From NCBI RefSeq assembly GCF_003334315.1, contig NZ_QOWR01000044.1: a DNA stretch of 41,657 bases; one strand, 5' to 3'. The DNA comes from Escherichia coli. GTDB taxonomy: Bacteria > Pseudomonadota > Gammaproteobacteria > Enterobacterales > Enterobacteriaceae. Shown piece after piece: positions 262 through 40,360 of this stretch; position 1 is the stretch's first letter; each line of letters starts with the position of its first letter. Below the pieces are notes generated by a model that saw nothing but the letters and a program-made list of their open reading frames with translations, did not search any database and was not told where the DNA came from. Made by a program: the position numbers and the translations under genes.

Positions 262-1125
262 TCACAAATAGAGCGCCGGAAATATCAACCGGCTCACCCC
301 GCGCACCTTTAACGCATCAGCCAACGGCTCAACGTCTTCCGGCGTGGCGCTCGCCCAGCTTTGCGCCTCGCCATACACGCCGTGGGCATGAAACGCGTTC
401 AGGCGTACCGGAACATCGCCAAGTCCCTTGATAAACACCGCCAGTTCTTCGATGTGTTGCAAATAATCCACCTGGCCAGGGATTACCAGCAAACGCAGTT
501 CCGCCAGCTTACCGCGCTCTGCCAGCAAACAGATGCTGCGCTTAATCTGCTGATTATCGCGTCCGGTTAATTGTTGATGACATTCGCTCCCCCACGCTTT
601 GAGATCGAGCATTGCGCCGTCACACACCGGGAGTAATTTTTCCCAGCCGGTTTCGCTCAACATACCGTTACTGTCCACCAGACAGGTGAGATGGCGCAGT
701 TGCGGATCGTTTTTGATAGCAGTAAACAGCGCCACTACAAACGGCAGTTGGGTCGTGGCTTCGCCGCCGCTTACCGTTATCCCTTCAATAAACAGCACCG
801 CTTTGCGGACATGGCTAAGCACTTCGTCCACGCTCATGGATTGCGCCATCGGCGTGGCATGTTGCGGACACCTCTTCAGGCAGGTATCACACTGCTCGCA
901 GACCGCAGCGTTCCACACCACTTTGCCGTCAACAATCTGCAACGCCTGATGCGGACACTGTGGCACGCACTCTCCGCAATGATTACAGCGCCCCATCGTC
1001 CACGGATTGTGACAGTTTTTGCAGCGCAGATTGCAGCCCTGCAAAAACAGAGCCAGACGACTGCCTGGCCCGTCAACGCAGGAGAAGGGGATAATCTTAC
1101 TGACTAAAGCGCATCTGCTGTTCAT
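262..1125 (-). CDS. yjjW: Glycyl-radical enzyme activating enzyme (radical SAM), YjjW family
   Basis: 287-aa ORF. It has the radical-SAM CX3CX2C motif ([12 protein letters not shown]) and two ferredoxin-like Cys clusters ([12 protein letters not shown] and [12 protein letters not shown]). It lies directly downstream of yjjI and overlaps it. I recognise it as E. coli YjjW. Confidence 0.95.
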
Positions 1126-2647
1126 GGCTTATCACGCGCGGCTGGCGTTCCAGAATACGAGTGTTGCGTGCGGCTTCTTCGCCCAGCCAGGTGGTGTTGG
1201 TGCGTGAACCTTCGGCGCGATATTTTTCTAAATCCGACAAACGCACCATATAACCGGTAACGCGAACCAGATCGTTACCGCTGACATTGGCGGTAAATTC
1301 ACGCATTCCGGCTTTAAAGGCACCGAGGCAAAGCTGTACCAGCGCCTGCGGATTACGTTTGATGGTTTCGTCGAGCGTCAGAATGTCGCTGATGCCGGAA
1401 TAATAATAAGCATGATGCGGGGCGACAGTTTGCAGATGGGTGATCGGATCTGGCTCATCGCCATAGGGTAAACGCGCGCCCGGCGTGGTGCCGATATCGG
1501 AACTGATCCCCGACTGTGCGTGTAACATGGCGCGTTTTTGCCAGCCATATTTCACGGGGGTATTGGCGACAAACTCCGCCAGTTGCGCGCTGATGCGATA
1601 ACCCACTTCATTTGCGGCGGCTTCTTTACCGTAGCGCGCGGCAATCCCTTCTTTCTCACACAGCAAGTTAACCGCTTCCGCCAGCCCATACATGCCAAAC
1701 ATTGGCACAAAACGTTCAGGGTTAATCAGCCCTTCTTTCACCAGGAAGCTATTCTCAAAGAAGTGTGATTGTTGATAGAGGAATTCACACCGCGCATCGA
1801 TGATGGCGATCTGCTGCTGGCAGTAGTGCGGTAGAGTGCGCGTAAAGAAGTCATCCAGCGATTCGCTGCGCTCGGCAATGGCTTTCAGGTTAAGGCGTAC
1901 CAGCGTGCTGCCACCACCCGCCAGCGGCAGTGAGTTGTAACAGCTCACAATCCCGTAGCCCCCTTTTGTGAAAATTTTATCATGCACCGGACCGTTGGCG
2001 ATGTGCGGTTTGCTACATTCACAGATGTTCTTCGCCACTTCCAGCAGCAGGTCATCAGGGGTGATTTCTGGATCGTAGATAAAGGTCAGGTTCGGTGAAA
2101 CCTGCTTCAACTCTGCATCTGCACGTAATATCGCACGGGTGATGGGCGAATCAGACGGGCCGATATTGGCGTGCATAAAGGCGTCTGGCAGGGTTCTGTC
2201 GAGGTAACGCCAGAAACGTTTTATTCGAATATCGATCTCGTCTTGTGTTAGAATTCTAACATACGGTTGCAACAACGCATCCAGTTGCCCCAGGTAGACC
2301 GGCATCGATGTGACCGACGGTACGTGGTGGTAAAGAATGGTCAGCAGAGAGAGTGCGTCATCAAGATCTTTCGCGCCTTCCAGCTCCAGCCATTCGGAAC
2401 CGTTCGCCAGAAAACGGGCGTAATCGGGTAAGACATAGCGCGGTTTGTACGGCGCATGACCTTCAAACATATCGCAGATTACACCCTCATCCAGCGCGCG
2501 GCGGGCCTCGGCAGGCAGCTGCGGATAAGGCAGATTGTTTTCTGCTTCCAGTGCCAGAAAATGGCGCTTCTGCTCCGGGCTAAGCACTGGGCTGGTGACA
2601 ATTTGCTGGCAACGTTGTTGCAGTGCATTTTCATGAGAAGTGGGCAT
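1097..2647 (-). CDS. yjjI: Short glycyl-radical-type enzyme of unknown substrate, YjjI family (DUF3029)
   Basis: 516-aa ORF with a C-terminal glycyl-radical fingerprint, [10 protein letters not shown] (RVxGY type). Its last 29 nt overlap the start of yjjW. I recognise it as E. coli YjjI. Confidence 0.95.
2246..2261 (+). promoter_or_regulatory. DeoR operator O1 at the deoP1 promoter
   Basis: Perfect 16-bp palindrome TGTTAGAATTCTAACA containing a TAGAAT -10 hexamer (2249-2254). It lies exactly 599 bp upstream of the O2 copy at 2845, which matches the published O1-O2 spacing. It sits inside the yjjI coding sequence on the opposite strand. Confidence 0.85.
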
Positions 2648-2755
2648 CTTCTTTTCCTTTTATGCCGAAGGTGATGCGCCATTGTAAGAAGTTTCGTGAT
2701 GTTCACTTTGATCCTGATGCGTTTGCCACCACTGACGCATTCATTTGAAAGTGAA

Positions 2756-13232: not shown

Positions 13233-13383
13233 GTAGGCCGGAAAAGGCGTTCACGCCGTATCCGGCATTCGGTGCTCAATGCCTGATGCGACGCTTACCG
13301 CGTCTTATCAGGCCTGGAGATTCACAACGTATTGAAATTTCTTGGTTTGTAGGCCGGATAAGGCGTTCACGCCGCATCCGGCA
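13233..13383. repeat. BIME cluster (three REP elements) between nadR and ettA
   Basis: REP palindromes at 13233-13267, 13281-13314 and 13349-13383 (GTAGGCCGGA(A/T)AAGGCGTTCACGCCG(T/C)ATCCGGCA and GCCTGATGCGACGCTTACCGCGTCTTATCAGGCC). Confidence 0.9.
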
Positions 13384-17628: not shown

Positions 17629-17774
17629 GTAGGCCTGATAAGACGCGGCAGCGTCGCATCAGGCATCGTGCACCGAATGCCGGATGCGGCGTGAACGCCT
17701 TATCCGTCCTACAAATACCCGTAATTTCAATATGTTTGGTAGGCATGATAAGACGCGGCAGCGTCGCATCAGGC
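17629..17774. repeat. BIME cluster (three REP elements) between trpR and yjjX
   Basis: REPs at 17629-17664, 17678-17712 and 17739-17774. The first and third are near-identical (GTAGGC(C/A)TGATAAGACGCGGCAGCGTCGCATCAGGC). Confidence 0.9.
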
Positions 17775-26380: not shown

Positions 26381-26449
<69 letters not shown>

Positions 26450-26473
26450 CGCGTACAGGAAACACAGAAAAAA

Positions 26474-26503
26474 GCCCGCACCTGACAGTGCGGGCTTTTT
26501 TTT
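26474..26503 (+). terminator. thr attenuator (leader terminator)
   Basis: Stem GCCCGCAC (26474-26481), loop CTGACA, stem GTGCGGGC (26488-26495), then a T8 run. It lies 27 bp upstream of thrA. Confidence 0.95.
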
Positions 26504-26529
26504 CGACCAAAGGTAACGAGGTAACAACC

Positions 26530-31757: not shown

Positions 31758-31863
31758 GCCTGATGCGACGCTGGCGCGTCTTATCAGGCCTACGTGAATT
31801 CTGCAATATATTGAATCTGCATGCTTTTGTAGGCCGGATAAGGCGTTCACGCCGCATCCGGCA
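31758..31863. repeat. BIME (two inverted REPs) between yaaX and yaaA
   Basis: GCCTGATGCGACGCTGGCGCGTCTTATCAGGCCTAC (31758-31793) and GTAGGCCGGATAAGGCGTTCACGCCGCATCCGGCA (31829-31863). Confidence 0.9.
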
Positions 31864-40272: not shown

Positions 40273-40300
40273 TCGCCCTATAAACGGGTAATTATACTGA

Positions 40301-40333
40301 CACGGGCGAAGGGGAATTTCCTCTCCGCCCGTG
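40301..40333 (+). other. dnaK-dnaJ intergenic stem-loop (region where K-12 annotation places the small RNA tpke11, from memory)
   Basis: CACGGGCG (40301-40308) pairs with CGCCCGTG (40326-40333), with further partial pairing inside. It probably attenuates or stabilises the dnaKJ transcript. Confidence 0.5.
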
Positions 40334-40360
40334 CATTCATCTAGGGGCAATTTAAAAAAG

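Follow-up and report, generated by a model that had tools for sequence, protein, structure and literature searches.

YjjI and YjjW of Escherichia coli: a minimal glycyl-radical-type enzyme and its dedicated activase, with a possible role in ribonucleoside breakdown

The described systems closest to the YjjI and YjjW proteins of Escherichia coli are the class III ribonucleotide reductase (RNR) NrdD, with its partner NrdG, and the PFL system PflB/PflA. Two further groups are made up of proteins of 760 to 850 residues assigned to InterPro family IPR004184: the E. coli glycyl-radical isomerases PflD and YbiW, whose substrates are 1,5-anhydrohexitol-6-phosphates, and the 1,2-eliminases, here represented by glycerol/propanediol dehydratase, CutC, HypD, and IslA. 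The 1,2-eliminases carry a general-base Glu two residues past the catalytic Cys (G-C-x-E). GrcA (YfiD) is a spare glycyl-radical domain of 127 residues that is short and has a PFL-type glycine loop. A review of the glycyl-radical superfamily dated June 2026 restricts its census to two InterPro families, the RNR-like and the PFL-like, and does not mention any Yjj protein, so that YjjI falls outside it. The preliminary description of the locus stated that the chemistry of YjjI is unassigned; in agreement with this, 8 million freely searchable full texts yielded no biochemical paper on YjjI or YjjW chemistry and none joining a glycyl radical to a nucleoside, deoxyribose, or ribose.

The window, that is, the whole stretch of 41,657 nucleotides that was analyzed (contig NZ_QOWR01000044.1), carries on its minus strand yjjI (positions 1097 to 2647; 516 residues), which encodes a minimal YjjI-family glycyl-radical enzyme, and yjjW (positions 262 to 1125; an open reading frame of 287 residues), which encodes its dedicated radical-SAM activase. 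Several E. coli chromosomes match this region with 100% identity and label its genes yjjI, yjjW, and deoC. Since deoC starts at position 2905 on the plus strand, the deoC and yjjI units are divergent and separated by 257 bp. RefSeq already names the two products "YjjI family glycine radical enzyme" and "YjjW family activase"; the feature itself is therefore not new, and the pair is routinely found in databases with its family already assigned. The coordinates in the open reading frame list agree with the 29-nt overlap reported earlier between the 3' end of yjjI and the 5' end of yjjW (positions 1097 to 1125, minus strand). The ATG at position 1125 is the first possible yjjW start past the in-frame stops TGA TAA, and no purine-rich Shine-Dalgarno run was found 5' of it. 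The overlap makes translational coupling of the two genes probable. Its length is 26 to 35 nt in 54 of 78 yjjI-yjjW loci and 8 to 20 nt in the gene calls of Clostridia.

YjjI of the window is the E. coli namesake of its family, with scores of 788.2 bits against TIGR04040 (cut-off, 498.3; residues 11 to 504 covered) and 732.6 bits against PF11230 (E = 2e-220). The family is small and of uniform length, about 500 residues, with PF11230 members in more than 600 species. The description of the pair as a complete, conserved two-gene system was upheld, since both genes are present and intact in 5,423 of 5,426 complete E. coli genomes, and in all 79 species loci surveyed yjjW follows yjjI directly in the same orientation, mostly overlapping it. 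Decay of the pair into a noncatalytic relic was considered because no strong phenotype was found in the searchable literature and because a few E. coli gene calls (P0011, P0077, and P0111) are cut short. This explanation has almost nothing to recommend it in view of the number of intact genomes and of the invariance of about 30 YjjI residues, the catalytic Gly and Cys among them, from Proteobacteria through Clostridia and Atribacteria; regulation of yjjI by FNR (PMC3688515) also speaks against it.

The glycine loop of YjjI, V461-R-V-T-G465-Y-M-V-R-L470, is encoded by positions 1238 to 1267 of the minus strand (G465 codon, 1253 to 1255). The protein had been said to end with a glycyl-radical fingerprint: the motif is indeed C-terminal, at residues 461 to 470, although "ends" is slightly loose, because G465 lies 51 residues before the C terminus. 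R462-V-T-G465-Y466 corresponds to the superfamily motif RVxG[FWY]; among YjjI members of 33 to 90% identity, R462 and G465 never vary and Y466 hardly does. Two flanking residues, L460 and T464, depart from the strict PROSITE glycyl-radical pattern. The cysteine loop, Y231-G-I-V-S-C236-Y-N238, is encoded by positions 1934 to 1957 of the same strand (C236 codon, 1940 to 1942). C236 is the only invariant cysteine in the alignment of diverse family members and is proposed as the putative thiyl-radical site. The neighboring S235 and N238 are invariant in that alignment, as are R70, R251, and R392 in members of 33 to 90% identity.

A structure prediction had been suggested as a check on the glycyl-radical assignment. 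The final model, built from 57 diverse sequences (pLDDT, 90.8), replaced an earlier one from 35 close homologues that was weak exactly at the cysteine and glycine loops (pLDDT, 71.5). It is a bare 10-stranded α/β barrel of the glycyl-radical/RNR type with two hairpins inside, one with G465 at the turn between strands 460 to 462 and 467 to 469 and the other with C236 at the turn between strands 231 to 233 and 239 to 241. Fold, glycine loop, and cysteine loop concur with the view of YjjI as a glycyl-radical-type enzyme. In a Foldseek search with the model, the best 19 matches were all class III RNRs, and hhalign gave a probability of 81% for E. coli NrdD versus 46% for PflB, with C236/C419, S235/C418, R251/R435, and G465/G734 as paired residues of YjjI and PflB. 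A single-sequence search of PDB sequences gave no meaningful match, and the family profile matched PFL, YbiW, HPAD, and NrdD in PDB with E values of only 0.003 to 0.03. Judged from the model, the closest structures are marginally those of class III RNRs, PFL-type enzymes appearing narrowly behind.

Sequence identity to NrdD is only 13 to 17%, and no NCBIfam NrdD model matched YjjI, whose relatives gave only weak matches to PF13597. YjjI has no ATP cone and is about 120 to 200 residues shorter than NrdD, too short to accommodate such a cone or a specificity site. It also lacks the second active-site cysteine of NrdD (C175), the region of which aligns with the cysteine-free stretch P-R70-Y-V-L-P-D-Y, and the C-terminal Cys4 zinc site, which is impossible in the absence of any cysteine past residue 440. 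Without these elements, an RNR-type reduction by YjjI would need a different reductant route. The glycine motif of YjjI, RVTGY, is that of PFL, whereas NrdD has RVCGY. An alternative ribonucleotide reductase, or another enzyme forming deoxyribonucleotides, is very improbable on these grounds; moreover, E. coli has NrdD and NrdG elsewhere, and loss of nrdD is not known to be rescued anaerobically.

PFL in turn matches the YjjI profile with an E value of only about 2e-4, and its residues 1 to 117 and several insertions are missing from YjjI. The PFL nucleophile C418 is replaced in YjjI by the invariant S235, which excludes an acyl-enzyme and PFL-type acyl transfer. A PFL isozyme is unlikely, the Cys-Cys pair (C418-C419) being absent and S235-C236 standing in its place. 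A 1,2-eliminase or dehydratase is likewise unlikely, since the sequence S-C236-Y-N238 has an invariant Asn at the position of the eliminase Glu. GrcA, which consists of the radical domain only and has neither barrel nor catalytic cysteine, differs from YjjI, which has the full barrel and its own cysteine loop. To judge by these residues, the chemistry of YjjI is not that of PFL, the 1,2-eliminases, or the canonical class III ribonucleotide reductase.

YjjW scored 397.9 bits against TIGR04041 (cut-off, 250.2), and all remaining glycyl-radical activase models stayed under their cut-offs (134.8 versus 174 for the generic PFLE_PFLC). The radical-SAM [4Fe-4S] motif C31-X3-C35-X2-C38 is encoded by positions 1012 to 1035 (minus strand), in a region matching PF04055 and PF13353. 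It is preceded by D-G-P-G-S-R (residues 18 to 23), an instance of the G-x-G-x-R motif typical of glycyl-radical activases. A ferredoxin-like insert (positions 868 to 987, minus strand; Fer4-family Pfam matches at residues 42 to 90) holds two CX2CX2CX3C motifs for auxiliary Fe-S clusters, C47/C50/C53/C57 and C76/C79/C82/C86, as in the two-cluster insert of non-PFL activases. All of the cysteine motifs mentioned in the preliminary description were thus located. YjjW belongs with the ferredoxin-insert activases of the PFL-like branch and is not NrdG-like. The constant linkage of the two genes bears out the claim that YjjI has its own activase, and we consider it very probable that YjjI is a glycyl-radical enzyme activated by YjjW.

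In the activation that we envisage, the reduced [4Fe-4S] cluster on C31/C35/C38 of YjjW, fed by the two auxiliary clusters, would cleave S-adenosylmethionine, and the 5'-deoxyadenosyl radical so formed would convert G465 of YjjI into a stable glycyl radical by removing a hydrogen. At each turnover the radical would pass from G465 to C236 on the opposing hairpin at the center of the 10-stranded barrel, and the C236 thiyl radical would abstract a hydrogen atom from the substrate, a small molecule that is probably anionic and bound by the invariant R70, R251, and R392. Both radical formation and the relay are inferred from the superfamily.

Published data place yjjI among the genes directly activated by FNR, with a ChIP-seq peak that maps onto the window about 93 bp upstream of the yjjI ATG (PMC3688515). 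A candidate FNR site, cGCAT-N4-ATCAA, was read from the sequence of the yjjI promoter at positions 2708 to 2721 (minus strand), on the basis of footprint alignment and of these published ChIP data. Its ATCAA half-site (GGATCAAAG) is invariant in 12 Enterobacteriaceae amid otherwise variable DNA, and the left half is poor and not conserved. The site has three mismatches to the consensus, all within one half, and a consensus scan allowing up to two mismatches gave no site in the yjjI promoter. A candidate -10 hexamer, TACAAT, lies 21 nt downstream of the half-site (positions 2681 to 2686, minus strand); TACAnT is invariant and its spacing to ATCAA is conserved in 12 genera, which would put the center of the FNR site near -41 relative to a start deduced from this hexamer. 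A Shine-Dalgarno-like AAGGA (positions 2655 to 2659, minus strand) is found 7 nt 5' of the yjjI ATG. A generic promoter and terminator scan detected nothing beyond the expectation from shuffled sequences. In Yersinia intermedia, 4.3-fold and 2.1-fold inductions were reported under anaerobic conditions (PMC3792023). In E. coli transcriptome clusters, yjjI groups with nitrate-respiration genes, not with nucleoside genes, and it is coexpressed with the respiration genes nar, nir, and frd (PMC3228777, PMC6643234).

The survey of gene neighborhoods, another check suggested at the outset, revealed ribonucleoside or ribose catabolic genes beside the pair in several lineages, with at least six independent arrangements (a tally rather than an enrichment statistic) that include YjjI homologues of only 36 to 40% identity. 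In Enterobacteriaceae and Edwardsiella, deoCABD lies beside the pair, with or without nupC. In Gilliamella, a single strand carries deoB-deoD-nupG-add-5'-nucleotidase-cdd-deoA-yjjI-yjjW. Locus L070 has genes for a RihA-like hydrolase, a ribokinase-like kinase, and nupC. In L091 (38% YjjI identity in the best tblastn segment), the genes encode a RihC-like hydrolase, an ARH-family protein, a PfkB kinase, DeoD, YjjI, YjjW, and a BMP-type ABC transporter. L094 has adenosine deaminase and a PfkB kinase, and L095 and L096 have a Rih-like hydrolase, an ARH-family protein, and ABC permeases. These clusters contain enzymes specific for purines as well as enzymes specific for pyrimidines, so that the pentose is the product they share. 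In enterobacteria, adjacency to deo is weak evidence by itself, since the deo operators O1 and OE lie within the yjjI coding sequence, and these embedded DeoR operators can also explain why the adjacency is locked in place. The yjjI promoter itself lies inside the DeoR O1-O2 loop. The suggestion that the deo neighborhood hints at a substrate class gains genuine support by comparison with the other lineages. A link of yjjI-yjjW to nucleoside or pentose catabolism has, in our estimate, slightly less than an even chance of being correct.

The competing view that deserves most attention regards YjjI as an anaerobic enzyme that works on its own, with a common central metabolite as its substrate, for example, a 2-oxoacid or another carboxylate held by PFL-like arginines, and the nucleoside neighbors as incidental. 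The pair stands alone amid unrelated genes in most lineages (Vibrio, Shewanella, Proteus, Providencia, and alphaproteobacteria) and in five of five loci from Clostridia and Atribacteria, and yjjW is the sole partner always linked to yjjI, a pattern like that of PFL and NrdD and unlike that of specialized catabolic enzymes. The coexpression with nar, nir, and frd is in line with this view, and the embedded operators can account for the enteric deo linkage. Of the PFL carboxylate arginines, R435 in R435-A-N-L aligns with R251 in R251-x-N-L, and R176 is within one residue of R70, albeit in a low-confidence stretch of the alignment. The recurrence of independent nucleoside and ribose arrangements down to distant homologues and the loss of the PFL nucleophile tell against a central metabolite, which we regard as the less likely reading.

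A service in anaerobic quinone metabolism was also weighed, since YjjI is encoded directly 3' of ubiT/ubiU/ubiV-like genes in Rhodobacterales. In three loci (L076, L079, and L081), UbiD is encoded on the opposite strand and two peptidase U32 proteins, YjjI, and YjjW are encoded on one strand; an SCP2 protein gene precedes the peptidase U32 genes only in L076 and L081. E. coli yhbUV and yjjI are, furthermore, both directly activated by FNR (PMC3688515). The arrangement is nonetheless limited to one lineage and three related genomes, is absent from the other groups surveyed, and has a cytochrome P450 gene just downstream. Both modules being anaerobic, their colocation may reflect shared regulation only, and a quinone role appears highly improbable.

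We therefore favor, with a probability of about 0.55, the reading of yjjI-yjjW as an anaerobically induced operon of two genes, for a minimal glycyl-radical enzyme and its private activase, with a role in ribonucleoside breakdown. Our best guess for this role is the anaerobic breakdown of ribonucleosides, in which the likeliest substrate would be the released pentose or pentose phosphate, for example, ribose-5-P or ribose-1-P, attacked by an RNR-like hydrogen abstraction beside one of its hydroxyl groups. Any such specific pentose-phosphate chemistry is doubtful. Similarly speculative is the broader proposal that YjjI is a third deep glycyl-radical branch, outside both InterPro families of the seven-class scheme, with an as yet undescribed radical chemistry directed at the pentose, free or phosphorylated, that ribonucleosides release. 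As an example, the 2-hydroxyl could be removed from free ribose phosphate in an RNR-like manner, and the product would feed deoxyribose-phosphate aldolase.

The present analysis adds to the known family assignment a concrete candidate substrate class, drawn from comparative neighborhoods. YjjI is the smallest complete glycyl-radical barrel encountered here and, being intermediate between class III RNR and PFL, is informative for how these two branches diverged. It is among the last radical enzymes of E. coli K-12 without a reaction; assignment of its chemistry would enlarge by one class a superfamily prized for difficult transformations under anaerobic conditions and could bring to light an unrecognized anaerobic step by which gut and marine bacteria metabolize nucleosides or pentoses. 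If the speculative third-branch reading is true, E. coli and many other bacteria would possess an anaerobic catabolic route for nucleoside sugars.

The first 3,000 nucleotides of the window were identical (100%) to several complete E. coli genomes, in which this segment is annotated with yjjW, yjjI, and deoC, and at least 80% of it was present in 5423 of 5426 complete E. coli genomes. The ORF list located yjjW (262 to 1125, 287 aa) and yjjI (1097 to 2647, 516 aa) on the minus strand with a 29-nt overlap (1097 to 1125), exactly as given in the preliminary description. The features reported there were likewise recovered: a glycyl-radical fingerprint near the end of YjjI (V461-R-V-T-G465-Y-M-V-R-L, 51 residues from the C terminus) and, in YjjW, the radical-SAM motif (C31-X3-C35-X2-C38) and two ferredoxin-like clusters (CX2CX2CX3C at C47 to C57 and C76 to C86). 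Family identity was also upheld, since YjjI scored 788 bits on TIGR04040 (curated cut-off, 498) and YjjW 398 bits on TIGR04041 (curated cut-off, 250), the remaining activase models tested on YjjW all falling below their own cut-offs. The yjjW ATG is the earliest start available after two in-frame stops, and sequence inspection found no Shine-Dalgarno-like run before it; together with the overlap, this makes translational coupling of the two genes a reasonable inference. Tandem 101-nt REP/BIME-type repeats (1 to 303; Rfam naRNA4 at 44 to 122 and 145 to 223) lie directly downstream of the yjjW stop codon. Because no intrinsic terminator was evident downstream of yjjW, these repeats may end or stabilize the yjjIW transcript. 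Further repeats of this type, also matching naRNA4, are located at 13236 to 13314 and 17632 to 17709. Matches to the RNA families of the threonine operon leader, ES036, and tpke11 (26385 to 26504, 31786 to 31828, and 40283 to 40360) indicate that the window extends from the deo region to beyond thrL, where the standard E. coli map starts.

The short length of YjjI, described as unusual, is a trait of the whole family and not a peculiarity of E. coli, since full-length representatives uniformly comprise 490 to 532 residues, with about 497 residues in Clostridia, Halanaerobiales, and Atribacteria. Matches at E ≤1e-3 amounted to 541 cluster representatives of 1.84 billion, mostly fragments. One homologue with 33% identity (locus L090, 3.9-kb contig JAANSV010476379.1) is flanked by genes for an ABC permease and a peptidyl-tRNA hydrolase, with no activase gene beside it on that contig; the table 11 translation of the called gene disagrees with the stored protein, and a different genetic code may be used. 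A single NCBI protein (P0004, 574 aa, 2.9-kb contig) combines PF11230 (YjjI) with PF01791 (DeoC-type aldolase); since yjjI and deoC are divergent in E. coli, this fusion probably reflects an error of assembly or gene calling.

A first structure model of YjjI relied on close homologues; it described the key loops poorly and was discarded. The second, for which the input was 57 sequences of 38 to 90% identity, was confident (pLDDT, 90.8; pTM, 0.90). This model placed C236 at the turn of one beta-hairpin (231-233/239-241) and G465 at the turn of another (460-462/467-469). Fold comparison gave scores of 14.6 to 21.9 for class I and II ribonucleotide reductases (RNRs) versus 7.8 for the first unrelated fold, and the top ranks in Foldseek were 19 class III RNR chains. 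About 30 positions were invariant in an alignment of members of 33 to 74% identity, including R462, G465, R70, R251, R392, H159, H376, E62, D150, E305, and D384. C236, within S-C-Y-N, was the only invariant cysteine and is the sole candidate thiyl site.

The YjjI family profile matched PFL, YbiW, HPAD, NrdD, and BSS weakly among PDB sequences (E, 0.003 to 0.03). Alignment by hhalign to E. coli NrdD covered the N-terminal two thirds of YjjI (81% probability), and alignment to PflB covered residues 92 to 487 (46% probability), pairing S235 with C418, C236 with C419, G465 with G734, and R251-x-N-L with R435-A-N-L. The fold matches to RNRs and the alignments to both NrdD and PflB thus position YjjI between the two recognized branches of the superfamily, and the model confidently predicts a minimal barrel between NrdD and PFL. 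YjjI fails the signature of each characterized class tested: it lacks the Cys-Cys pair of PFL, the Glu that follows the catalytic Cys in the 1,2-eliminases, and the second cysteine and zinc site of NrdD. Judged by these motifs, the known reaction classes are excluded.

We surveyed the neighbourhood of yjjI at 79 species-level loci. yjjW followed yjjI on the same strand in 79/79, in keeping with the claim that the enzyme has its own activase, and no second universal neighbour was found among these loci. The junction overlap was 26 to 35 nt in 54 of 78 loci and 8 to 20 nt in Clostridia gene calls. deoCABD is divergent from yjjI in Enterobacteriaceae and Edwardsiella, and nupC comes next after yjjW in several of these genera. 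Gilliamella carries deoB, deoD, nupG, genes for adenosine deaminase, 5'-nucleotidase, and cytidine deaminase, deoA, yjjI, and yjjW on a single strand. Genes for a RihA-like hydrolase and a ribokinase-like kinase, and nupC, are divergent from yjjI at L070. At L091, where YjjI has 38% identity over the best tblastn segment, genes for a RihC-like hydrolase, an ARH-family protein, a PfkB kinase, DeoD (scoring over its cut-off), and a sulfatase-like enzyme precede yjjI and yjjW co-directionally, and MFS and BMP-type ABC transporter genes follow in the same direction. An adenosine deaminase fragment and a PfkB kinase accompany YjjW and YjjI at L094; a Rih-like hydrolase, an ARH-family protein, and BMP-type ABC permeases are encoded at L095 and L096. 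Weaker nucleoside or ribose neighbourhoods occur at L042, L045, L077, L090, and L097, and neighbours are unrelated in Proteus, Providencia, Vibrio, Shewanella, Psychromonas, alphaproteobacteria, L089, L093, and five Clostridia or Atribacteria loci. Nucleoside or ribose genes were clearly present in ~6 of ~19 arrangement types. This recurrence looks above chance, since by our own estimate well under 10% of random loci would lie within a few genes of nucleoside genes. Because both purine and pyrimidine enzymes occur in these clusters, the pentose is their common product.

The synteny with deo needs to be read with caution. A perfect DeoR palindrome, TGTTAGAATTCTAACA (O1, 2246 to 2261), lies inside yjjI (codons 129 to 134), 599 bp from a second operator (O2, 2845 to 2860), and an OE-like match (12/16, 1967 to 1982) occupies codons 222 to 227, exactly 279 bp beyond O1. 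Both spacings agree with the distances published for O1-O2 and OE-O1 of deo. All enterobacterial genera with deo next to yjjI retain the intragenic operator, and it is missing wherever deo lies elsewhere, indicating that yjjI and deo are physically entangled; this alone could preserve synteny. As for the proposal that deo hints at the substrate class, nucleoside and ribose genes in other lineages favour it, whereas the operators could by themselves account for the enterobacterial arrangement. Tempered by this entanglement, the cross-phylum context points to ribonucleoside or pentose catabolism for YjjI.

The yjjI promoter is located within the O1-O2 loop, beside the deoP2 CRP sites, from which position DeoR, CytR, and CRP may also act on yjjI. 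Three CRP-like sites, two intergenic ones corresponding to the deoP2 sites (2759 to 2774 and 2812 to 2827) and one intragenic (2309 to 2324), may affect yjjI too; those at 2812 to 2827 and 2309 to 2324 match motifs under CRP ChIP-seq peaks in ETEC (PMC4287617). According to published ChIP-seq data, FNR directly activates the yjjI operon, and its peak maps onto the genome ~93 bp upstream of the yjjI ATG (PMC3688515). On the minus strand, we found a candidate FNR site (cGCAT-N4-ATCAA, 2708 to 2721) and a candidate -10 element (TACAAT, 2681 to 2686). In a 12-genus enterobacterial alignment, the sole invariant islands of the promoter were GGATCAAAG and TACAnT, at a fixed spacing. Despite a poor left FNR half-site, this geometry fits an activator-dependent promoter. 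Anaerobic induction was reported in Yersinia intermedia (yjjI, 4.3-fold; yjjW, 2.1-fold; PMC3792023), and transcriptome clustering in both E. coli and Salmonella grouped yjjI with genes of nitrate respiration (PMC3228777; PMC6643234).

Other neighbours recur in particular lineages. A LysR-family regulator gene repeatedly adjoins yjjI-yjjW in Vibrionaceae, Shewanella, Psychromonas, and relatives (L042 to L069 and L089), in most cases immediately downstream of yjjW and on the opposite strand, and Hyphomicrobiales carry a divergent AraC-family regulator in its place. Both may be regulators dedicated to the pair, and their ligands could point to the YjjI substrate. In Rhodobacterales (L076, L079, and L081), yjjI-yjjW is directly preceded by ubiD, on the opposite strand, and by two peptidase U32 genes and, at L076 and L081 only, an SCP2 gene, all of which share the strand of yjjI. 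These genes resemble ubiT, ubiU, and ubiV, of oxygen-independent ubiquinone hydroxylation.

Searches of freely accessible full texts returned no biochemical study of YjjI or YjjW. The June 2026 review of Imrich et al., which defines the superfamily by IPR012833 and IPR004184 and recognizes seven classes, mentions neither Yjj* nor nucleosides anywhere, in line with the statement that no chemistry had been assigned. Together, these results confirm the observation made in the preliminary description and support its interpretation. The gene pair is already catalogued and not novel as a finding, since RefSeq product names state the same, and its function is a recognized gap. To this, our analysis adds the structural placement of YjjI, the assignment of C236 as sole candidate thiyl site, the motif-based exclusion of reaction classes, and evidence from cross-phylum context.
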